Position numbers and translations under genes: made by a program
In this document: positions 14,026 through 29,585 of the stretch, in pieces
Numbering within the stretch: the first letter of the stretch is position 1
Layout: every line of letters begins with the position of its first letter
Origin: an uncultured Actinomycetota bacterium
Lineage (GTDB): Bacteria; Actinomycetota; Actinomycetes; Actinomycetales; CAVURS01
Reading direction: 5' to 3'
Length of the DNA: 64,000 bases
Assembly: GCA_963743975.1 (NCBI GenBank)
Contig: CAVURS010000005.1
Coordinates: 497,351-561,350, forward strand
Notes under the pieces: generated by a model
The model's input: the letters and a program-made list of their open reading frames with translations, nothing else
The model's database searches: none
What the model was told of the DNA's origin: nothing

Positions 14026-14732
14026 TGGCCTACCTGACCCGATGGCAGGACGACCGGTCCCGTCCCACCGCTCGTGAGGCCGCGCGCGACCTCGGGGTGC
14101 GAGCACTGGCGCCCACGGCCGTGTGGTGGCTGGTGGTCCTCGCCTTCGGCTGGGCTCTCGCGGACGGGCCGTTGAAGCACATGGGTCGCAGCGAGGAGGC
14201 GCTCAACAGGAGTCTCGCCGCTCGGCGCACGTCGGTCTTCAACGACATCACGTTGTTCTTCTCGTGGACCGGCGCCACGGTGAGCATCGTCGGCGTCTGC
14301 ATCGTCACGATGGCCGTCATCTGGTGGCGGACCCGACGCTGGTGGTTCACCGTCGTGCCACTGATCGCCATCTCGCTCCAGGGCATCGTCTTCTTCTTCA
14401 CGACGCTGCTGATCGATCGGCAGCGCCCCGACGTCGTCAAGCTCGACCACTCACCTCCGACGTCCAGCTACCCCAGCGGCCACAGCGGCGCAGCCACCGG
14501 GCTGTACGTCACGCTTGCGCTGCTGGCCCTGCAGATCCGGCGACCGGTGCTGCGCGTCCTCACGGTGACGATCTGCCTCCTCGTCCCTCTGCTCGTCGCC
14601 TCGGCCCGCCTCTACCGCGGGATGCACCACCTCACCGACGTCTCCGTGGCCATCCTCAACGGCCTGATCGCCGCCCTCCTCGCCTGGGCCTGGCTGCGGC
14701 GTCGCCCGGCCGGCGAGGAGACGCGTCGGTGA
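14025..14732 (+). CDS. PAP2 family lipid phosphatase
   Basis: DRQRP, SSYPSGHS and ARLYRGMHHLTDV; TGATG coupling to the previous gene. Confidence 0.92.
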   Translation: MAYLTRWQDDRSRPTAREAARDLGVRALAPTAVWWLVVLAFGWALADGPLKHMGRSEEALNRSLAARRTSVFNDITLFFSWTGATVSIVGVCIVTMAVIWWRTRRWWFTVVPLIAISLQGIVFFFTTLLIDRQRPDVVKLDHSPPTSSYPSGHSGAATGLYVTLALLALQIRRPVLRVLTVTICLLVPLLVASARLYRGMHHLTDVSVAILNGLIAALLAWAWLRRRPAGEETRR

Positions 14733-15652
14733 TCACGGTCGTCGTGAACCCCATCAAGGTCGACGTCGACGAGGCCCGCGAGGTCCTGACCACGGCCGCC
14801 GCTTCCGCAGGTCTGGCCGCGCCGCGCCTGGTCGAGACGACCGAGGACGACCCCGGGTTCGGCCAAACCACCCAGGCCCTCGCAGACGGCACCGAGCTGG
14901 TGTGCGCCCTCGGCGGGGACGGCACGGTGCGGGCCGTCGCCCAGGTGCTGGCCGGGACCGCCGTACCGCTCGGTCTGCTGCCCGGAGGAACGGGAAACCT
15001 GTTGGCGCGCAACATCGGCGGCGGTGTCGACTCGCTCGCCGACGCGGCCGGCATAGCGTTCACCGGCCGCGACCGCACGATCGATGTCGGCTGGATGATC
15101 ATCGACCCGCGCGAGCACCAGCGCAGCGGCGTTCCGGAGCGGGCGGAGAACGTGCACTGCTTCACGGTCATGGCAGGGGTCGGGTTCGATGCCCAGATGA
15201 TGGCCGACGCCCCGGAGGGCGTGAAGGACAAGGCCGGCTGGGCGGCGTACGTCGCCAGCGGTGGCAAGCACCTGACCGACCCGCCGTTCTCGGTCGACCT
15301 CGTCGTGGACGGCCGGGCCGCTACGACGGGCACGGCGAGGACCGTGGTCGTGGGCAACTGCGGCGAGCTGACCGGTGGCATGGTCCTGCTGCCCGATGCC
15401 GTCGTCGACGACGGCCGGCTGGACGTGGCCAGCGTCAGCCCGGAGAGCCTGAGCCAGTGGATCGGCGTCGCGGCCAGGGTGCTGGGCAAGAAGGACGACG
15501 GCCACTCGCTCGAGCGGATCAGCGGTGAGGACATCACCGTGCGGGTCGACCCACCGCAGCTGTGCGAGGTCGACGGTGACGTGCTCACCGAGGCCGGGGA
15601 GATCCGCTTCGTCGTCCACCCGCGCTCGCTGATCGTCCGGGTCCTGGACTGA
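14729..15652 (+). CDS. Diacylglycerol/lipid kinase family protein
   Basis: VVVNP, GGDGTV, LPGGTGNLLARN, GVGFDA, DDGRLDV and EVDGD; GTGA overlap. Confidence 0.93.
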   Translation: MITVVVNPIKVDVDEAREVLTTAAASAGLAAPRLVETTEDDPGFGQTTQALADGTELVCALGGDGTVRAVAQVLAGTAVPLGLLPGGTGNLLARNIGGGVDSLADAAGIAFTGRDRTIDVGWMIIDPREHQRSGVPERAENVHCFTVMAGVGFDAQMMADAPEGVKDKAGWAAYVASGGKHLTDPPFSVDLVVDGRAATTGTARTVVVGNCGELTGGMVLLPDAVVDDGRLDVASVSPESLSQWIGVAARVLGKKDDGHSLERISGEDITVRVDPPQLCEVDGDVLTEAGEIRFVVHPRSLIVRVLD

Positions 15653-16201: not shown

Positions 16202-16876
16202 CTAGTGGTCGCCGGGGACGCCGTAGGACGGGGCGGCGGTGGGGTTCAGGGCGCGCTGGACGTAGTCGTCGGCCTGGTCCCGCCAGAGCTCCCACAGCCG
16301 GCCGAGCTCCGCCACGGGCTGCTCGGACCAGTCGACCCGCAGGTCGGTGACCGGCCAGGCCACCCGGTCCACGACGAGCAGCCCCGCGGAGTGGATCGGG
16401 CCCGCCTCTCCCCCGGCGGCCAGCCCCGCCCGCAGCGCGCCGACGAGCCGTGCGCCGAGCGGCATCTGCGGCTCGGCCCGGAAGCCCTCGACCACGGCGG
16501 CCAGCACACCCTCGTCCGCCAGCAGGTTGCCCGCGGCGGAGCAGCCCACGCCGCGCGCCGTGCCGAAGACACCGAGGGACTGCGAGCCGGAGTACGACGC
16601 CGTGCTCCCGTGCGCGTCGACCAGGCTCAGCTGGCGGTACGCGATGTACGGCGCGGACGCGACCACCTCGTCGAGCGCCTCCTGCGCCGTCCGGCCGTCC
16701 GCGAGGAGGTCGAGCAGCCGCGGGCCGAGCGAGGGGTCGGTGACGTTCTGCGTCGACACCGCGCCGACCCCGGCCCGGGCCCAGGCGCAGCGAGCGGCCA
16801 CCGCCGGGCTGGACGACGTGACCGCGACGCCCAGCTGTCCGGTCCGCTCGCAGCGGCCGGCGACGGAGAAGGTCAC
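16202..16876 (-). CDS. DUF1028 family protein (Ntn-hydrolase-like)
   Basis: Begins (M)TFSVAGRC, then GVAVTSSSPAVAARC, GAVSTQN, AAGNLL, SAGLLVV, DLRVDW and PSYGVPGD; GTGA overlap. Confidence 0.92.
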   Translation of the reverse strand: MTFSVAGRCERTGQLGVAVTSSSPAVAARCAWARAGVGAVSTQNVTDPSLGPRLLDLLADGRTAQEALDEVVASAPYIAYRQLSLVDAHGSTASYSGSQSLGVFGTARGVGCSAAGNLLADEGVLAAVVEGFRAEPQMPLGARLVGALRAGLAAGGEAGPIHSAGLLVVDRVAWPVTDLRVDWSEQPVAELGRLWELWRDQADDYVQRALNPTAAPSYGVPGDH

Positions 16877-17301
16877 GAGCGCACGGCCGTCGCCGTGACC
16901 TCGACCAGCCACTCGGGGCGGGCCAGGGCCGAGACGACGACTCCGGTGAAGACCGGGAAGACGCCGCGCAGCCGCTCGCCCAGGACGCCGTACACCGCCT
17001 CCCGGTGCCGGATGTCGGTGAGGTAGACCGTGCAGGAGACGATGTGCTCCCTCGTCGCGCCGGCCTCGGCCAGCAGCGTCTCGATGTTGTCCACCACCCG
17101 GTGCGCCTGGCCCGCGGGGTCGCCGACAGCCACGGACTCGCGGGTGTCGAGGTCCTGCGCCACCTGCCCGCGCAGGTAGACCGTGTCACCGGCCACCACG
17201 GCCTGGCACAGGTCGTTGGACAGCCGCTGCTCCGGGTAGGTCTCGGCGGTGTTGAACGGCCGGATCCGGCGATGGCCACCCACCACCAGCGGCTCGCTCA
17301 C
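16873..17301 (-). CDS. Rid (YjgF/YER057c/UK114) family protein lacking the catalytic Arg
   Basis: RIRPFNTAETYPEQRLSNDLCQAV, VYLRGQV and ALARPEWLVEVTATA; FPVFTG stands where RidA has PAR(S/T). Confidence 0.92.
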   Translation of the reverse strand: MSEPLVVGGHRRIRPFNTAETYPEQRLSNDLCQAVVAGDTVYLRGQVAQDLDTRESVAVGDPAGQAHRVVDNIETLLAEAGATREHIVSCTVYLTDIRHREAVYGVLGERLRGVFPVFTGVVVSALARPEWLVEVTATAVRS

Positions 17302-18752
17302 GAGGTCGCCCCGAGCGGCGCGTCCAGGCGGGCCGACCTGCTCATCCGCTCGACGGCCGGGCCGAAGTCGTAGTTGTTGTAGACCGCGAGCAGGTGTGAG
17401 AACGGCGGTGACTGCGCGAACAGCTGGAAGGTCAGCCGGTGGCCGGCGTAGTCGGAGTTCAGCAGGTCCCGCGCGTAGGTCAGCATCCGCCGGCGGCGCT
17501 CCGCGTCGACGTCACCGACCCGGAAGAACTTCTGCAGCCACTCGCCCGCCTCCGGGTCCTGGAACATCGCATGGCTCGGCACGAGGCTGATCTGGCAGCC
17601 GCAGAGGTCGCGGACCAGGTGCATGATCTCGGGCAGTCGCGAGCAGGCGTGCACCCGGCCGGAGTAGAGCAACGCCTGGTTGGGCATGGTCAGCCCGCTC
17701 GGGCTCTCCTCGGCCAGCTCGACGGCGGCGGTGAGGTGCGCTCGGATGCCCTCGCGGTAGCAGGCGACCTGCGCGATCTTCTCCCGAACCCCTTGGTGCA
17801 TCTTGGTTCCGGTCTGCTGGGCGTTGGCGTAGACCAGGCCCAGCATCAGGTCGGCGAAGCGCAGGTGCCGCTGCACGAACGCGTACATGCTGTAGCGGTG
17901 CAGGGTCGATCGGATGAAGGCCGCCGCCTTCGTGTGCCGGTAGAAGAAGACGTTCTCCCAGGGGATCTCCACGTCGTCGAAGACGATCATCGTGTCGACC
18001 TCGTCGAACCGGTTGCTCAACGGGTAGTCGGCGTCGGGCAGGCGGCCCGCGAACCCCGAGCGGCACAGGTGCCGCACGCCGGGAGCGCCCATGTCGGCCA
18101 GGAACCCCACCGCGTAGTCGGAGAGCGCGTCGTTCCCCCAGTCACCGATCGTCGGCTTCACGAACGCCTGGTTCGCGTACGCCGCGGCCGTCTCGAACTT
18201 CGCGCCGCGGACCACGATGCCGCTGTCCGTCTCCTTGACCACGTGCAGCAGCACGTCCGGGTCCTGGTCACGGGGGTGCTTGCTCCGGTCGCCCTTGGGG
18301 TCGGTGTTGGCCGAGACGTGGAAGGGGTCGGCCAGCTGGGCGCGCCGCACGTGCCGGCGGATGTTCTCGGAGAACGTCGGGTCGATCTCGTCGAGGACGT
18401 CCTGGCCGTCGACGAGCGACCACATCTCACCGACCGTCTCGTCCCCCACCCGGGTCACGACACCACCCAGGTCGTCGAAGACCGTCTCCACGGCCCGGTG
18501 CTTGGCCCGCCAGTCCTCCCGCGACGACGGCGGCTTGCTGCCGATCGCACACGTCTCGCCGCTCTCCTCGTCGACGTAGGTCATGGCCGCGGCGGTCGCG
18601 CTCTCGTGCGCGAGGTCGAAGATCCGGGCCCGCGCCTGGACGATCGGCCGGAAGGCCGGATGGGTGGTGACGTCCTCGACCCGCTCGCCGTCGATCCACA
18701 CCTCCCGGCCGTCGGCGAGGGACTCCTGGTACTGCGCACCCGTGCGGATCAT
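17298..18752 (-). CDS. HpaB / 4-hydroxyphenylacetate 3-hydroxylase family flavin monooxygenase, oxygenase component
   Basis: MIRTGAQYQESLADGREVWIDGERVEDVTTHPAF, TDPKGDRS, GIVVRGAK and YPLSNRFDEVDTMIVFDDVEIPWENVF. Confidence 0.92.
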   Translation of the reverse strand: MIRTGAQYQESLADGREVWIDGERVEDVTTHPAFRPIVQARARIFDLAHESATAAAMTYVDEESGETCAIGSKPPSSREDWRAKHRAVETVFDDLGGVVTRVGDETVGEMWSLVDGQDVLDEIDPTFSENIRRHVRRAQLADPFHVSANTDPKGDRSKHPRDQDPDVLLHVVKETDSGIVVRGAKFETAAAYANQAFVKPTIGDWGNDALSDYAVGFLADMGAPGVRHLCRSGFAGRLPDADYPLSNRFDEVDTMIVFDDVEIPWENVFFYRHTKAAAFIRSTLHRYSMYAFVQRHLRFADLMLGLVYANAQQTGTKMHQGVREKIAQVACYREGIRAHLTAAVELAEESPSGLTMPNQALLYSGRVHACSRLPEIMHLVRDLCGCQISLVPSHAMFQDPEAGEWLQKFFRVGDVDAERRRRMLTYARDLLNSDYAGHRLTFQLFAQSPPFSHLLAVYNNYDFGPAVERMSRSARLDAPLGATS

Positions 18753-19387
18753 CGTCGTGCCTTCCTGGTGGTCAGGTCGCGGGGACCGATCGGCACGCCG
18801 GTGGCCAGCTGCAGGTAGGACAGGATGTTGCGCCGCGCGCCGTCCGGGTCCACGTGGGCGTTGCGGCCGACCAGGTGCAGGCCGTACGCGTCCTCGAGGG
18901 CGACGGCGTTCGCGGCCACCAGCTCGACGTCCGCCCGGTCCGTGCTGAAGACGCCGGCCTCACGTCCCGAGCGCAGGACCTGGACGTACAGCGAGACCTC
19001 CCGGTCGTACAGGCCGGTCATGAGGGCGGCGTGGGTCCGGCTGCGGGCCGCGTGCAGGTGCATCTCGTAGAGCACGCGGCACAGCTCGTCGTCGGAGCGG
19101 TCCGGTATGCCGTGCTCGACCAGCGCGACGAGCTCGGACACGGGGTCGGGGGCGCGCTCCACCGCGGCGAGCCGGCGCCAGTAGAAGCGGTCGACCGCGT
19201 CCTGGTGCACGTCGGTGAGGAGCTCTCCGAAGTCCGGGTAGTAGTAGCTCACCAGGCCGGCGGAGAGGTCGGCCTCCTCGGCCACATCCTTGACCCGCAC
19301 GCCGTTCAGCCCACGCCGCAGGATCGCCCGCCCGGCCGCCGCGACCAGGTCCTGCTTGCGCGCGGTCTGTTCCTTGGGCCGGGACAT
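18749..19387 (-). CDS. TetR family regulator (BetI-like C-terminus)
   Basis: HTH VRVKDVAEEADLSAGLVSYYY; ATGA overlap with the monooxygenase. Confidence 0.92.
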   Translation of the reverse strand: MSRPKEQTARKQDLVAAAGRAILRRGLNGVRVKDVAEEADLSAGLVSYYYPDFGELLTDVHQDAVDRFYWRRLAAVERAPDPVSELVALVEHGIPDRSDDELCRVLYEMHLHAARSRTHAALMTGLYDREVSLYVQVLRSGREAGVFSTDRADVELVAANAVALEDAYGLHLVGRNAHVDPDGARRNILSYLQLATGVPIGPRDLTTRKARR

Positions 19388-19394
19388 GGGCTCA

Positions 19395-19417
19395 TTATTG
19401 ACGCCGTCGACGAATAA
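19395..19417. promoter_or_regulatory. Candidate TetR operator
   Basis: TTATT-n13-AATAA dyad, AT-rich in a GC-rich background, 7 bp upstream of the tetR ATG in the divergent intergenic region. Confidence 0.55.
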
Positions 19418-19536
19418 CTGACAAGCCCTGCAGCGTTCTTTTTCAGCCGCACCGCGGGATACTTTGCGCTGGACGGGAAAGAACGAGAACGCGCAGCCGA
19501 CGCAGGACGACCGCACCCAGGCGAGAGGCACACCTC

Positions 19537-21489
19537 ATGGCGCAGCACCCCCTCGACCGGCTCACGGCCGACGAGATCGCCGAGAACCGGCGGATCCTCG
19601 ACGCGGACGGCCTGGTGGGACCGGCCACCCGCTTCCCGCTCGTGCTGCTGGCCGAGCCCGGGAAGCACGAGGTGCTCTCCTGGGCGGACGGCGATCCGGT
19701 CCCGCGGACGGTCCGCACGGTGCTGCTGGACCGGGCCACCGGCGAGGTGAGCGAGGTGGTCACGTCGCTGACCGACGCGACGGTGGTGAGCCGGCGCCGC
19801 GTGGACGTGGCCACCGAGGGGCAGCCGCCGATCATGGCCGAGGAGTTCACGCTGGTCGAGGAGATCCTCTGGGCCGACGACGCCTGGTGCGCGGCCATGC
19901 GGCGGCGCGGCCTGGACGACCCCCGCCGGATCCGGATCTCCGCCCTCAGCGCCGGCTCGTTCGACCTGCCCGGCGAGGCCGGCCGGCGCCTGGTCCGCTG
20001 CCTGTCCTTCCTGCAGCTGGGCGACGACGACAACGTCTGGGCCCACCCGATCGACGGCGTGGTGGCGTACGTCGACCTGATCACCCGCGAGGTGACCGAG
20101 CTCGTCGACTCGGGAGTGTTCGACGTGCCGCGCACCCCGGCCGACTACCACCGGCCCGACCCGGACCGGCCGGCCCGCACGACCCAGCGGCCGATCGAGA
20201 TCAGCCAGCCCGAGGGTCCCAGCTTCACCGTCCGCGACGACGTGGTGGAGTGGGAGCGCTGGCAGCTGCGGATCGGCTTCGACCAGGTCGAGGGACTGAC
20301 CCTGCACCAGATCGGCTTCCGGGACGGGGAGCGGCTCCGGCCGATCGTCTACCGGGCCTCGGTGGCCGAGATGGTCGTCCCGTACGGCGATCCCTCACCC
20401 GTCCGGTTCTGGCAGAACTACTTCGACGCCGGGGAGTACTCGCTGGGCAAGGACGCCAACGCGCTCGAGCTGGGCTGCGACTGCCTCGGGGAGATCCACT
20501 ACCTCGACGCCACCCTCGCCGACGACGACGGCCACCCGCGCGCGGTCCGCAATGCCATCTGCCTGCACGAGGAGGACTTCGGGGTGCTCTGGAAGCACAC
20601 CGACCCCTACAACGGCTCGGTCTCCACGCGGCGGCAGCGACGCCTGGTCGTCTCGTTCTTCATCACGGTCGGCAACTACGACTACGGCTTCTCCTGGTAC
20701 CTCTACCTGGACGGCACCATCGAGCTCGAGTGCAAGGCCACCGGCGTGGTCTTCGCGTCGGCGTACCCCGGCCCCTCGCCCGACGGGACGCCGTACCCCT
20801 GGGCCAGCGAGGTGGCCCCGGGGGTCGGTGCGCCGTACCACCAGCACCTGTTCTCGGCCCGGCTGGACATGATGGTCGACGGGGTGGGCAACGCGGTCGA
20901 CGAGGTGGACGCCGTGCGGGTGCCGGCCGGCCCGGACAACCCCTACGGCAACGCCTTCAGCCGCCGGTCGACCCGGCTGCGACGGGAGTCGGAGGCCGCC
21001 CGCTCGGCCGACGGCTCGGTCGCGCGCACCTGGCACATCAGCAACCCGGGCCGGCGGAACGCCCTGGGCCGTCCGGTCGCCTATGCGCTGTACCCCGAGG
21101 GCCAGCCGACCCTCCTGGCGGCCGACGGCTCGTCGATCGCCCGCCGGGCGGCGTTCACGACCCGGCACCTGTGGGTGACCGCGCAGGACGACCGACAGCG
21201 TTATCCGGCAGGTGATTTCGTCAACCAGAGCGTCGGGGACGCCGGCATCGACTCGTGGGTCACGGCCGACCGGGACATCGACGGGACCGACATCGTGGTC
21301 TGGCACACGTTCGGGCTGACACATTTCCCGCGGCCGGAGGACTGGCCGATCATGCCGGTGGACTCCACCGGTTTCGTCCTCAAGCCGCACGGCTTCTTCG
21401 ACGAGAACCCGGCCCTGGACGTGCCCGAGCCGGCCGCCGCGCACCGGCCCGGCGAGGCCGGCCCGGGCTGCTGCGGAGACGACCGCTGA
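19537..21489 (+). CDS. Copper-containing primary amine oxidase (TPQ); Arthrobacter histamine/phenylethylamine oxidase-like
   Basis: TVGNYDYGF (TPQ consensus), catalytic Asp in YFDAGEY, Cu ligands HQH and THFPRPEDWPIMP, LGCDCLG; no signal peptide. Confidence 0.96.
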   Translation: MAQHPLDRLTADEIAENRRILDADGLVGPATRFPLVLLAEPGKHEVLSWADGDPVPRTVRTVLLDRATGEVSEVVTSLTDATVVSRRRVDVATEGQPPIMAEEFTLVEEILWADDAWCAAMRRRGLDDPRRIRISALSAGSFDLPGEAGRRLVRCLSFLQLGDDDNVWAHPIDGVVAYVDLITREVTELVDSGVFDVPRTPADYHRPDPDRPARTTQRPIEISQPEGPSFTVRDDVVEWERWQLRIGFDQVEGLTLHQIGFRDGERLRPIVYRASVAEMVVPYGDPSPVRFWQNYFDAGEYSLGKDANALELGCDCLGEIHYLDATLADDDGHPRAVRNAICLHEEDFGVLWKHTDPYNGSVSTRRQRRLVVSFFITVGNYDYGFSWYLYLDGTIELECKATGVVFASAYPGPSPDGTPYPWASEVAPGVGAPYHQHLFSARLDMMVDGVGNAVDEVDAVRVPAGPDNPYGNAFSRRSTRLRRESEAARSADGSVARTWHISNPGRRNALGRPVAYALYPEGQPTLLAADGSSIARRAAFTTRHLWVTAQDDRQRYPAGDFVNQSVGDAGIDSWVTADRDIDGTDIVVWHTFGLTHFPRPEDWPIMPVDSTGFVLKPHGFFDENPALDVPEPAAAHRPGEAGPGCCGDDR

Positions 21490-25162: not shown

Positions 25163-28100
25163 CTACGAGGCGTAGAAGACGCGGTCCACCACGGCGCGGG
25201 CCCGGCGGCTCAGCCGGAGGTAGTCGTCCTCCGCCTGCTGCCCGTGCCCCGGCGGGTACCCCACGATGCGGGCGATGCCGTCGCGGTCGCGGCTGTCCCC
25301 GGGCAGGGCGTCGACCGGCCGCCCACGCCAGAGCACCGCGGCGTTGCGCCACTTCGACGCGAGCGTCCAGGCCTCGGCCAGGACCGAGCCGTCCGCGGGC
25401 GCGAGCAGCCCGGCGTCGACCGCGGCGGCCAGGGCCGGCAGGGTGCCCGGTCGTCCGCAGCGCCTCGACCTCGGCGGCGTGCCGGAGCTGGATCAGCTGC
25501 ACGGTCCACTCCACGTCCGCGAGGCCACCCCGGCCCAGCTTGAAGTGACGGCTGGGATCGGCCCCCTTCGGCAGCCGCTCGGCCTCGACCCGCGCCTTGA
25601 TCCGCCGGATCTCCCGGACGTCGCCGGGCCGCAGCCCGCGCTCGGGCCAGCGAATCGGCTCGATCAGCTGCTCGAAGGCCTTGCGCAGCGCCGCGTCCCC
25701 GGCCACGGCCCGGGCCCGCAGCAGGGCCTGCGACTCCCACACCAGCGACCAGCGCTCGTAGTAGATGCGATAGGACTCCAGGCTGCGCACCAGCGGGCCG
25801 TTCTTGCCCTCGGGCCGCAGTCCCACGTCGAGCTCGATCGCCGGGTCCGGTCCCGGACGCCGACAGCAGGCGGCGCAGCTCCTGGACGGCGGCCGTCGCG
25901 CCCTCCTGGGCCTCCTGGTCGTCCGCCCCCGGCACCGGGTCGTAGACGAACACGACGTCGGCGTCGCTGCCGTAGCCGAGCTCGGCCCCGCCGAAGCGGC
26001 CCATCCCGATGACCGCGACCCGGGCCGGCAGCGGGCGACCCGTCTGCTCCTCGGCGGTCCGGATCGCGAGCTCGAGCGCGCCCTCCACCATGGCCGCGGC
26101 GATGTCGGTCAGGGCCGAGCCGACCTGCTGAAGGCTCGCCACGCCCACGAGGTCGGCCACCGCCGTGCGGAACAGCTCCCGGCGGCGGACGGCCCGGGCC
26201 CCTTCGAGGGCCTGCTCGGGCTGCCCCTCGTGCCGGCCGACCGCGGTGCGGACCTCGGCCACCAGCGCCTCGGCTTCGCGGGCGCGCAGCCCGCTGTCGT
26301 CACCGAGGATCAGCGCGGCTTCCGGCGCCCGCTGCAGCAGGTCCGCGGCGTAGCGGCTGCGGGACAGCACGTGGGCCAGCCGCTCGGCCGCCGAGCCGCT
26401 GTCGCGCAGCATCCGCAGGTACCAGTGGCTGCCACCCAGCGCCTCGCTGACCCGCCGGAAGGCGAGCAGCCCGGCGTCCGGGTCGGCCTCGTCGGCGAAC
26501 CAGCCGAGCATCACGGGAAGCAGCGTCCGCTGCATCGCGGCCCGCCGGCTCACTCCCTCCGTGAGCGCGGCGATGTGGCGCAGGGCGCCCGCCGTGTCGC
26601 GAAAACCCAACGCCGACAGGCGTTCTCGGGCCGCCTCGGGCGTGAGCCGGGTCTCGTCGGGGCTCAGCCGGGCCACGGCGGCGAGCAGCGGGCGGTAGAA
26701 GATGCGCTCGTGCAGGCGGCGCACCTCGCGGGCCTGACGCTGCCACTGGCCGAGCACCGAGTGGGCCGGGTTGGCCCGGTGCCCCATGCTGCGGCCGAGC
26801 CAGCGCAGATCGTCCTCCGACGTCGGCATGAGGTGCGTCCGGCGCAGCCGGTGCACCTGCACCCGGTGCTCCAGGCACCGCAGCACCCGGTACGCCGCGT
26901 CCAGGCCCGCCGCGTCGTCGCGGGCGACGTACCCACCCGCCGCCAGCGCGGCGAGCGCGTCCAGGGTCGTGCGGCTGCGCAGGCTCTCGTCGGTCCGCCC
27001 GTGGACCAGCTGGAGGAGCTGCACGCTGAACTCGACGTCGCGCAGTCCGCCCTTGCCGAGCTTGAGCTGGCGGTCGGCCTGGTCCGCGGGCACGTGCTCC
27101 TCGACCCGGCGCCGCATGGCCTGCACGTCGGCCACGAAGTCCGGGCGCTGGGCCGCCGACCAGACCATCGGGGACACGGCCTCGACGTACGCCTCGCCCA
27201 GCGCGAGGTCACCGGCGACCGGACGGGCCTTGAGCAGGGCCTGGAACTCCCAGGTGCTGGCCCACCGCTGGTAGTACGCCACGTGGCTGGCCAGGGTACG
27301 CACCAGCGGGCCGTTCTTGCCCTCGGGCCGCAGCGCGGCGTCGACCGGCCACAGCGTGCCCTCGGCGGTGGCGGCCGAGCAGGCCCGCATCATCGCGGTG
27401 GCCAGGAACGTCGCGGACTCCAGGGCCGCCCGCTCGTCACCGCCCTCGGGAGCCTCGGCGACGAACACCACGTCGACGTCGGAGACGTAGTTCAGCTCGT
27501 GACCGCCCGTCTTGCCCATGCCGATGACCGCCAGGCGGCACGGCGCGGCCCCCGGCGGCTGCTCGGCCCGCGCGACCGCCAGCGCCGCACCCAGGGCGGC
27601 CTGGGCCAGGTCGGCCAGCTCCCCCGCCACCTCGGGCAGGTCGTGAGGGGGGTCCGAGCTGTGCAGGTCGCGACCGGCGAGAGCCAGCAGGCGGCGCCGG
27701 TACGCCCGGCGCAGGGCGTCGTAGCCGGCCGCGCCGGGGCGACCGACCGGCTCGGCCGCCGTCGGGATCGGCGCCGACCGCCTGTCAGCAGCTCGTGGTC
27801 CAGCTCTGCCTGCGAGCACGGCTCCCCGAGCTCCAGGGCGGTCCAGTCCCCGGGGTGCCGGGCCAGGTGCTCGCCCAGCGCGACCGACGTGCCGAGCACG
27901 GCCATCAGGCGGTCGCGGACCGGACCTCCGGTCCGCACGACTGCGCGCCAGCCGGGCCGGGTGGGCCGGGTGGCTCTCCCGTTCGAGGGCGTCGTCGCGG
28001 TCGCTGGAGCGGGCCAGCGACTCCATCAGGCGGACCAGCCCGAGCAGCGCCTGGTCGGGCTGCGGGACGCTGGACAGCGCCGCCAGCAGGCCGTCGTCGA

Positions 28101-28248
28101 AGACGTCCTCCAGGGGGTCGACCAGGCCGGACAGCGCCGGATCGGCCAGCAGGCGCTCGGCCCGGGCCGGATCGCGAAAGCCCAGCCGGGCCAGCTGGCC
28201 GGCGAGGGAGGACTCGCGCTGTCGGGGCATGGCCGAGCGCGTCGTCAC
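25163..28248 (-). CDS. glnE: Glutamine synthetase adenylyltransferase / adenylyl-removing enzyme; indels
   Basis: Two NTase domains ([16 protein letters not shown]; [16 protein letters not shown]), each with [12 protein letters not shown] and W(E)xQALL; adjacent to glnA2. Confidence 0.95.
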
Positions 28249-29585
28249 AGCACCGGGAGGTAGCGCTCCAGCTCGAACGGCGTCACCTGGGCGCGGTACT
28301 CCAGCCACTCGGCCCGCTTGTTGCGCAGCACGAAGTCGAAGACGTGCTCCCCCAGCGTCTCGGCGACCAGCTCGCTGTCCTCCATCCGCCGGATCGCCTG
28401 CGACAGGTTGGTCGGCAGCGGCTCGATGCCCATGGCCCGGCGCTCGGAGTCGGTGAGGCTCCACACGTCGTCCTCGGCCTCGTCCGGGAGCTCGTAGCCC
28501 TCCTCGACGCCCTTGAGCCCCGCGGCGAGCATGACCGCGAAGGCGAGGTAGGGGTTGCACGCGGCGTCGACCGAGCGGATCTCGGCCCGAGTGGACTGGC
28601 CCTTGGCCGGCTTGTACATCGGCACGCGGACCAGGGCCGAGCGGTTGTTGTGCCCCCAGCAGACGTACGCCGGCGCCTCGCCGCCACCCCAGAGCCGCGT
28701 GTAGGAGTTGACCCACTGGTTGGTGATGGCGGTGAACTCGCCGGCATGGCGCAGCAGCCCGGCGATGAAGTGCCGACCGGTCTTGCTCAGCTGGTAGGCT
28801 CGCGCCGTTCTCGTGGAAGACGTTGCGGTCCCCCTCGAACAGGCTCATGTGTGTGTGCATGCCGGAGCCGGGGTGGTCCCGGAAGGGCTTGGGCATGAAG
28901 GTCGCGTAGACGCCCTGCTCGAGCGCGACCTCCTTGATCACGGTGCGGAAGGTCATGATGTTGTCCGCCGTGGTGAGCGCGTCGGCGTACCGCAGGTCGA
29001 TCTCGTTCTGACCGGGCGCGCCCTCGTGGTGGCTGAACTCCACCGAGATCCCCATCGACTCCAGCATGGTGATCGCAGCCCGCCGGAAGTCGTGCGTCGT
29101 CGCCGTGCGGCACGTGGTCGAAGTAGCCGGCCCGGTCCACCGGCACCGGCGGCTCACCGGGCTTGAACCCCTGCTCGAGGACGAAGAACTCGATCTCCGG
29201 GTGGGTGTAGAAGGTGAAGCCGAGGTCCGCGGCCTTGGCCAGCGCGCGCTTCAGCACGAACCGCGGGTCGGCCAGGCTGGGCGTGCCGTCGGGCAGGTGG
29301 ATGTCGCAGAACATCCGCGCCGTACCGGGGTTCTCCCCGCGCCACGGGCAGCACCTGGAACGTCGAGGAGTCGGGCCGGGCCAGCATGTCCGACTCGTAG
29401 ACCCGGGCGAAGCCCTCGATCGAGCTGCCGTCGAAGCCGATGCCCTCGGCGAACGCACCCTCGAGCTCGGCCGGCGCCACGGCGACCGACTTCAGCGTGC
29501 CGAGCACGTCGGAGAACCACAGCCGCACGAAGCGGATGTCGCGCTCCTCGATGGTGCGGAGCACGAACTCCTGCTGCCTGTCCAT
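28245..29585 (-). CDS. glnA2: Glutamine synthetase-like protein GlnA2; indels
   Basis: MDRQQEFVLRTIEERDIRFVRLWF, FDGSSIEGF, SHHEGAPGQNEID, TFMPKP and NPYLAF. Confidence 0.93.

Follow-up and report, generated by a model that had tools for sequence, protein, structure and literature searches.

The Hin pathway and the organisation of the locus

In Pseudomonas, HinC and HinD convert histamine to imidazole-4-acetate (ImAA), which is converted to aspartate by the products of hinFLHG (PA5393-PA5390). PMC8231116 and PMC6467879 describe an FAD monooxygenase (HinF, EC 1.14.13.5), an enamine deaminase (HinL), two amidases (HinH and HinG, the latter EC 3.5.1.8) and an aspartate ammonia-lyase (HinI). These published assignments and the gene order agree with the hinFLHG block as outlined in a preliminary description of the locus considered here. 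This locus is found in a 64,000-nucleotide stretch of DNA (the window) from an uncultured Actinomycetota bacterium (assembly GCA_963743975.1, contig CAVURS010000005.1), and consists of a copper amine oxidase gene on the plus strand, divergent from a minus-strand operon coding for a TetR-family regulator, an HpaB-family oxygenase component, a Rid protein and a DUF1028 protein. On the basis of sequence comparison, it is quite likely to be a histamine/ImAA catabolic unit that retains the chemistry of the Hin pathway, with HinF replaced by an HpaB-family two-component oxygenase.

The locus shares with Pseudomonas hinFLHG the order oxygenase, Rid, DUF1028, the last corresponding to HinH by gene order. 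Where Pseudomonas has the FAD monooxygenase HinF, however, the window encodes an unrelated HpaB-family two-component enzyme, and while the former has the M20 hydrolase HinG, the LysR-type regulator HinK and the aminotransferase HinC, the latter has a TetR-family regulator and an oxidase and is without an M20 gene. In the plasmid of Arthrobacter sp. ERGS1:01 (L099), as in the window, a copper amine oxidase and a TetR-family regulator adjoin the Rid-DUF1028 operon. This cluster differs from that in the window in its HinF-like flavin monooxygenase (FMO), M20 hydrolase, aldehyde dehydrogenase and aspartase, and these differences set the Brevibacterium/Arthrobacter type as a whole apart; its oxidase is annotated as a primary-amine oxidase, a LysR-type regulator is also present, and its TetR protein is not orthologous to that in the window, with 24% identity over a 68-residue N-terminal alignment only.

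The system as a whole had initially been put forward as a candidate undescribed one. This view stands for the exchange of the oxygenase, but not for the association of a copper amine oxidase with Hin genes in Actinobacteria, as a copper histamine oxidase feeding Hin homologs has already been proposed for Brevibacterium in PMC6467879. Neither an HpaB-type ImAA oxygenase nor a role of DUF1028 in histamine catabolism was described in the literature searched, which largely excluded subscription journals. The novelty most likely lies in a widespread and systematically mis-annotated HpaB-type oxygenase variant, while the Hin pathway itself is known. The features of the locus are as follows.

19537-21489, plus strand: copper amine oxidase of the topaquinone (TPQ) type, 650 amino acids (aa); PF01179, 514.4 bits
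19388-19536, no strand: divergent intergenic region between tetR and the oxidase gene, 149 bp
18749-19387, minus strand: TetR-family regulator, 212 aa; first gene of the operon
17298-18752, minus strand: HpaB-family oxygenase component, 484 aa; HpaB_N and HpaB_C domains
16873-17301, minus strand: Rid (YjgF/RidA) protein, 142 aa; PF01042, 73.8 bits
16202-16876, minus strand: DUF1028 protein with the Ntn-hydrolase fold, 224 aa; PF06267, 226.8 bits

The open reading frame (ORF) list and the Pfam and NCBIfam searches bear out the earlier account of an indel-free five-gene locus: all five genes are present and intact at these positions, no frameshifts occur and the profile matches run end to end. 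The 4-nt stop/start overlaps were likewise read from the sequence at all three operon junctions, with ATGA between tetR and hpaB (18749-18752) and GTGA both between hpaB and rid (17298-17301) and between rid and the DUF1028 gene (16873-16876), such that the rid gene is overlapped by 4 nt on both sides. The longest mechanically called ORFs begin further upstream, at 16912 for DUF1028 and 19531 for tetR. The GTG at 16876 gives the DUF1028 protein the N-terminus MTFS, which is also found in the DUF1028 proteins of four relatives and in PDB 2imh, while the tetR start, the ATG at 19387, was chosen by reading of the sequence. The flanking genes are unrelated; those on one side code for two PAP2 phosphatases and a lipid kinase, and their counterparts on the other for a luciferase-like oxidoreductase and a HAD hydrolase.

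The integrity of the locus is noteworthy when set against the split-frame genes elsewhere in the same assembly. Outside the window, a second DUF1028-like stretch (G000:C5:448535-449005) matches the Pfam profile in three pieces in different frames, and may be either a frameshifted paralog or the product of an assembly indel. An aspartate ammonia-lyase-like gene (G000:C2:262416-263793), also outside the window, is recovered in three or four tblastn pieces. The assembly seems to carry indels or pseudogenes elsewhere, unlike the intact locus.

The HpaB-family oxygenase

The oxygenase matches both domains of its family over nearly their full lengths (HpaB_N, 285.4 bits, profile positions 1-269 of 270; HpaB_C, 176.6 bits, positions 6-200 of 202), and belongs to the same fold family as HpaB of Thermus thermophilus and the chlorophenol and nitrophenol monooxygenases. 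Many relatives with 72-91% identity occur in the protein database, all of them generically named, and the clade carries the public name 4-hydroxyphenylacetate 3-monooxygenase. This name would fit an aromatic-amine pathway, in which the oxidase acts on tyramine or phenylethylamine, the HpaB-family protein is a true 4-hydroxyphenylacetate (4-HPA) 3-hydroxylase and Rid and DUF1028 are passengers. Enterobacterial tyramine catabolism pairs an amine oxidase with HpaB in this manner, and the oxidase in the window matches the phenylethylamine oxidase of Arthrobacter globiformis in the PDB with 780 bits. The properties of the oxygenase nevertheless make this pathway very improbable. Its scores lie below the cut-offs of both 4-HPA hydroxylase equivalogs (TIGR02309, 246.4 against 480.2 bits; TIGR02310, 167.4 against 885.2 bits), and its best relative of solved structure, T. 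thermophilus HpaB (PDB 2yyg), is matched with only 201.7 bits. When aligned with the latter protein, Arg101 and Thr201 of the oxygenase correspond to Arg100 and Thr198, while Glu105 replaces Tyr104 and Ser147 replaces His142. Tyr104 and His142 of the T. thermophilus enzyme presumably bind and deprotonate the phenol and are taken here to form, together with the arginine, its phenol-binding triad. This triad is incomplete in the oxygenase, with Arg retained and Tyr and His replaced, and the replacements are invariant among the aligned members of the clade, where all 206 rows have Ser147 and 205 have Glu105, the remaining row having a gap at the latter position.

The surroundings of the gene point in the same direction. 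No ring-cleavage dioxygenase is present among the ten most recurrent neighbour clusters of the oxygenase orthologs and the ten annotated clusters of the next nineteen, clusters 9 and 11 being among those without annotation in this check. Unlike the 4-HPA hydroxylase HpaB, the clade adjoins hydrolases of imidazole catabolism rather than such dioxygenases, and the supposed passenger Rid is translationally coupled to the oxygenase and, as detailed below, retained in nearly all related loci. The scores below the equivalog cut-offs and the invariant Glu105 and Ser147 indicate that the oxygenase is not a true 4-HPA hydroxylase, an alternative that had been raised when the locus was first described. 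An assignment of the HpaB-fold protein as a 4-hydroxybutyryl-CoA dehydratase was also considered and rejected, as it matches those enzymes with only 103-113 bits.

Genes for flavin reductases adjoin the oxygenase orthologs in Bacillus badius, Aminobacter, Paracoccus (as a fusion ORF), genomes G083 and G056 and loci L086 and L087, which suggests that the clade behaves as a genuine two-component system. The assembly containing the window encodes one distant flavin reductase homolog (31% identity; C2:226826-227320), with none at the locus. The ORF on the Paracoccus plasmids (L005:10053-11222 and L098:13950-15122) joins a LysR-substrate-like half to an N-terminal half that resembles flavin reductases (46-47% identity to that of Aminobacter), and its annotation is either hypothetical or 'LysR substrate-binding domain'. 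It may represent a fusion of a reductase and a sensor.

Related loci and proposed exchange of the oxygenase

A scan of one genome per species yielded 587 relatives of the oxygenase, from which the 80 best-matching loci (66-83% identity) were taken. Their neighbouring genes were counted in tblastn searches, for which proteins of the window and of annotated loci served as references; these counts replaced those of an earlier gene caller based on third-position G+C, which under-called the genes (Rid in 44/79 and DUF1028 in 18/79 loci). The 80 loci derive mostly from soil Actinomycetota assemblies, with Mycolicibacterium peregrinum, M. houstonense, Mycobacterium sp. 21AC1, Enteractinococcus and Thermomicrobiales/Chloroflexota among the other carriers. 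At least 2.5 kb of sequence is available downstream of the oxygenase in 69 loci, and Rid is encoded there on the same strand in 66 of these. DUF1028 follows in 42 of the 69 loci and an amidohydrolase is encoded between the oxygenase and Rid in 24, while no locus contains both and only three (L029, L040 and L080) contain neither. The amidohydrolase of L021 matches the NCBIfam hutI model (imidazolonepropionase) with 325 bits, above the equivalog cut-off of 298, and the remaining 23 are 70-89% identical to it. The recurrence of this gene combination in other genomes argues against a chance juxtaposition in the window.

The closest relatives, in loci L015, L016, L022 and L082, encode oxygenases with 81-83% identity to that in the window. 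Here a TetR gene is divergent from an operon with the order histamine dehydrogenase, HpaB, Rid and DUF1028, to which an amidohydrolase may be added. The dehydrogenase of L015 matches the histamine dehydrogenase of Nocardioides simplex (PDB 3k30) with 1116 bits, a second histamine dehydrogenase with 831 bits and trimethylamine dehydrogenase with 473 bits, and that of L054 shows the same ranking (1027, 868 and 550 bits, respectively). In the closest relatives, the gene immediately preceding that of the oxygenase thus codes for an ortholog of the N. simplex enzyme, while the window has a copper amine oxidase in the corresponding place. No histamine dehydrogenase was found in the assembly containing the window, 53% of which was searched. 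In L015 (12560-14200) and L022 (9304-10980), a 546-558 aa Amidohydro_3 protein is encoded after DUF1028, in the place that the M20 gene occupies elsewhere and where nothing is found in the window. It may serve as an alternative last hydrolase.

Other amine-deaminating genes occur in the wider set. Copper amine oxidases with 43-47% identity to that in the window are encoded in 11 further loci, usually directly after DUF1028, histamine dehydrogenases of the above type in six and class-III aminotransferases in 20, such that 35 of the 80 loci, and 27 of the 51 that are flanked by 5 kb or more in both directions, contain at least one such gene. M20 hydrolases are encoded in 37 of the 80 loci, aspartases in five and aldehyde dehydrogenases in six. 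In the Mycolicibacterium loci and in genome G111, a LysR gene is divergent from genes for an amino acid permease, HpaB, Rid, DUF1028, M20 and aspartase; the M20 and aspartase proteins of Mycolicibacterium are 69-72% and 58-61% identical, respectively, to those of the FMO-type cluster of Pseudonocardia. In L021, a DUF1989 gene (urea-amidolyase-associated) is found on the opposite strand just past the M20 gene (14202-14801), as it is in 13 other Solirubrobacterales-type loci.

Oxygenase orthologs with 51-67% identity are also encoded in 15 plasmid or chromid records. Paracoccus ferrooxidans and P. aminophilus combine an ABC transporter with HpaB, RidA, DUF1028, an ArgE-type M20 hydrolase and a LysR regulator, with HutD further along, while in Aminobacter sp. 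MSH1 HutD precedes the series flavin reductase, HpaB, RidA and DUF1028, with M20 and aspartate ammonia-lyase genes nearby. In Bacillus badius, the order is flavin reductase, HpaB, an FAD-synthetase-like protein, RidA, DUF1028, permeases, an aminotransferase and an aldehyde dehydrogenase. The HpaB variant is thus found in Chloroflexota, Pseudomonadota and Bacillota as well, and the notion of a specifically actinobacterial system had to be abandoned. A gene resembling class II histone deacetylases is present on the B. badius plasmid pPM400 (L096), downstream of the FAD-synthetase-family/RidA stretch, and might admit N-acetylated amines to the pathway.

Clusters with the order FMO, RidA, DUF1028, M20 are found in Burkholderia multivorans, Pseudonocardia, Arthrobacter sp. 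ERGS1:01, Streptomyces and Mycolicibacterium arabiense. The gene for aspartate ammonia-lyase often comes next, as in Pseudonocardia, and these clusters are taken as being of the hinFLHG type; the lone Pseudomonas plasmid match is fragmented and without annotation at the match. The Rid protein in the window is 63% identical to those of both Paracoccus (HpaB type) and Pseudonocardia (FMO type), and 53% identical to that of Burkholderia. Its DUF1028 protein, which matches PF06267 over the entire profile (1-193 of 193) and PDB 2imh with 68.3 bits, and in which, as in its relatives, Thr directly follows the initiator Met, shares 59% identity with that of Paracoccus, 53% with those of Pseudonocardia and Burkholderia, and 52-61% with proteobacterial and actinobacterial hin-like clusters in general. 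Within the assembly, which is 53% complete, the Rid and DUF1028 queries match this locus only, and no HinF-like FMO was found at the locus or elsewhere with the Pseudonocardia and Burkholderia FMO queries.

The two oxygenase types appear to be interchangeable; the preliminary description had proposed a survey of whether they are mutually exclusive. No HinF-like FMO is encoded in any of the 80 HpaB loci, and three complete genomes of the HpaB type contain no close FMO, the best match showing 35% identity. Tblastn searches of plasmid records recovered DUF1028 in 256, HinF-like FMO in 236 and the HpaB clade in 15, and the 60 FMO matches listed of the 236 include no accession of the 15 with the HpaB clade. 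Most of the FMO matches listed are 66-88% identical across phyla. The counts of FMO and DUF1028 are equal in several genera, namely 105 each in Klebsiella, 15 in Acetobacter, 14 in Pantoea, 12 in Leisingera, ten in Paraburkholderia and eight in Burkholderia. The equal number of Klebsiella records with a HinF-like FMO and with DUF1028 suggests that clinical plasmids carry a hin-like module. On many conjugative plasmids of Klebsiella and Escherichia coli (105 Klebsiella records; L008 = K. pneumoniae NZ_CP057068.1), RidA, DUF1028 and ArgE are followed by an ABC ATPase, a quinone oxidoreductase, a glutathione S-transferase (GST) and a dehydroquinase.

Among 400 other Actinomycetota genomes, full-length DUF1028 orthologs with at least 44% identity are encoded only in G111, G083 and G056, which are also the sole genomes in which the oxygenase has an ortholog with 56% identity or more, while 57 more contain a DUF1028 paralog type with 36-44% identity. 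This tally includes the unpublished genomes G088 and G391, which contain the distant paralog type only and on which nothing rests. As three carriers are too few for a test of co-occurrence, the 80 loci and the plasmid records were used instead.

A maximum-likelihood tree was constructed from 55 DUF1028 proteins, comprising 48 linked to HpaB, five hand-chosen proteins linked to FMO and two from Pantoea and Klebsiella; rows with ORFs outside 200-260 aa were dropped, as were L011 and L013 as duplicates of L104 and L103. The HpaB- and FMO-linked proteins interleave, and the well-supported branches require the label to change at least three times. The protein of G083 (HpaB type) groups as sister to that of M. 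arabiense (FMO type) with a support of 99/97, and Enteractinococcus (HpaB type) falls within the FMO group of Arthrobacter, Pseudonocardia and Streptomyces with a support of 98/94. Together with the orthology of Rid and DUF1028 to those of the FMO-type clusters, this upholds the earlier view that the locus retains the oxygenase-Rid-DUF1028 order with an unrelated oxygenase, and supports replacement of the FMO by the HpaB clade in otherwise homologous operons.

Proposed route, amine oxidase and regulation

In the proposed route, the copper amine oxidase would convert histamine to imidazole-4-acetaldehyde, which an aldehyde dehydrogenase encoded elsewhere could oxidise to ImAA. With reduced flavin from a reductase encoded elsewhere, the oxygenase would then hydroxylate the ring of ImAA to give imidazolone-acetate, a step suggested by the gene context and the changes in the active site. 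The presence of a HutI equivalog in 24 loci that lack DUF1028 points to an imidazolone as the oxygenase product and, as this equivalog stands in for DUF1028, suggests that the latter is the ring hydrolase, which may open the imidazolone ring to yield N-formimidoyl-aspartate. The window has DUF1028, with its Ntn-hydrolase fold, in place of HutI, and while HutI of histidine utilisation acts on imidazolone-propionate, the substrate expected here is imidazolone-acetate. Rid could handle the imine/formimino step leading to N-formyl-aspartate, from which a HinG-like M20 deformylase would release aspartate for conversion to fumarate by aspartase, neither enzyme being encoded at this locus. Histamine is favoured over tyramine and phenylethylamine as the substrate, since the genes of histamine dehydrogenase orthologs immediately precede that of the oxygenase in the closest relatives, the HutI equivalog replaces DUF1028 in 24 loci and aspartase is linked to several clusters. 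The histamine/ImAA route put forward in the preliminary description is thereby supported by comparative genomics, through the conserved operon core, the linked histamine dehydrogenase and the orthologous Rid and DUF1028 proteins.

The same chemistry may alternatively be applied to another substrate, for instance imidazole-propionate, a pyrrole carboxylate or an N-acetylhistamine-derived acid, and the oxidase would then feed in a different biogenic amine. The true imidazolonepropionase equivalog in 24 loci, the proximity of the oxidase to phenylethylamine oxidase among solved structures, the Rid-DUF1028-M20 genes of Pantoea and Klebsiella plasmids, which no oxygenase gene adjoins, and the deacetylase-like gene in the B. 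badius cluster would all be compatible with this. It is considered unlikely in view of the histamine dehydrogenase orthologs upstream of the closest relatives' oxygenases and the orthology of Rid and DUF1028 to those of FMO clusters with the hinFLHG order. In addition, the Mycolicibacterium, Aminobacter and FMO-type clusters end with aspartate ammonia-lyase rather than an enzyme of a glutamate pathway, and this aspartase linkage argues for the acetate over imidazole-propionate.

Several observations weigh against a histamine/ImAA function nonetheless. The 80 loci are the closest relatives of the oxygenase and many are kin to each other, so they do not constitute independent cases. An amine-deaminating gene within 10 kb is missing in 24 of the 51 well-flanked loci, and many of the class-III aminotransferases are only 27-36% identical to the reference. 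The correspondence of HinH with DUF1028 and of HinL with Rid is drawn from gene order and published annotations, and imidazole-propionate as the substrate would likewise be consistent with a HutI equivalog. A Pfam scan detected no aldehyde dehydrogenase, flavin reductase, M20 deformylase or transporter at the locus, and the best match to a HinG-like M20 hydrolase in the 53% complete assembly shows 33% identity. The solved structure closest to the oxidase is that of phenylethylamine oxidase, and sequence does not settle the substrate of the oxidase, which is only 56% identical to the oxidase adjoining the FMO-type hin cluster on the Arthrobacter sp. ERGS1:01 plasmid.

On balance, the clade may well represent an unrecognised two-component, reduced-flavin-dependent ImAA monooxygenase, which may have displaced HinF several independent times on a Rid-DUF1028 backbone in at least four phyla, with DUF1028 as the putative imidazolone-acetate ring hydrolase, isofunctional with the HutI paralog of Solirubrobacterales-type loci. 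If so, it would be the first HpaB-family enzyme to act on an imidazole ring, extending the family to imidazole substrates and providing a second, non-homologous gene for chemistry of the EC 1.14.13.5 type, and the annotation as 4-hydroxyphenylacetate hydroxylase would require correction in hundreds of soil and marine genomes. As DUF1028 and the HutI equivalog exclude each other, a concrete function that can be tested may be proposed for this domain, which has long been without one. Histamine/ImAA catabolism would further emerge as modular, with three amine-deaminating enzymes, two oxygenases and two ring hydrolases variously combined. The pathway appears to be common in uncultured soil Actinomycetota and Chloroflexota, which is of relevance to the prediction of biogenic-amine turnover from metagenomes.

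The oxidase itself shows the features of a TPQ copper amine oxidase. In addition to the catalytic Cu_amine_oxid domain, it contains the N2 and N3 domains and matches NCBIfam PRK11504 with 882 bits (cut-off 651), and the alignment with the Arthrobacter oxidase shows the NYD, HQH and C-terminal His motifs, of which the first is presumed to be the TPQ-precursor motif and the His motifs are presumed to supply the copper ligands. The operon may degrade ImAA with the oxidase being a functionally unrelated chance neighbour in this genome, as the oxidase gene is on the opposite strand, belongs to another lineage than the oxidases of the Gaiellales-type loci (43-47% identity) and is replaced by histamine dehydrogenase in the closest relatives. 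Against this stand the amine oxidases linked to the operon in 11 other loci and to the Arthrobacter FMO-type cluster, as well as the 149-bp divergent control region beside tetR, which suggests co-regulation, and a chance association is regarded as quite improbable.

Under the favoured histamine/ImAA function, TetR would probably repress both divergent units until histamine or ImAA is present. The regulator is identified by TetR_N (24.1 bits, cut-off 24), with TetR_C_6 just below its cut-off (26.6 against 27 bits), and TetR genes with 38-41% identity are divergent from the histamine dehydrogenase-HpaB operons of L015, L016, L022 and L082. The 149-bp intergenic region presumably holds both promoters and the TetR operator; neither an inverted repeat (seed 6) nor a sigma-70-like promoter was detected within it. 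In the same four loci, a conserved motif with short inverted arms 8 nt apart is found just 5' of the dehydrogenase start, and a similar A/T-containing stretch can be discerned by eye upstream of the oxidase gene at 19450-19500 of the window. This motif could be a -10 element or a TetR operator. Elsewhere in the window, a 1315-aa ORF is located on the minus strand (25210-29157) in a stretch of approximately 76% G+C.

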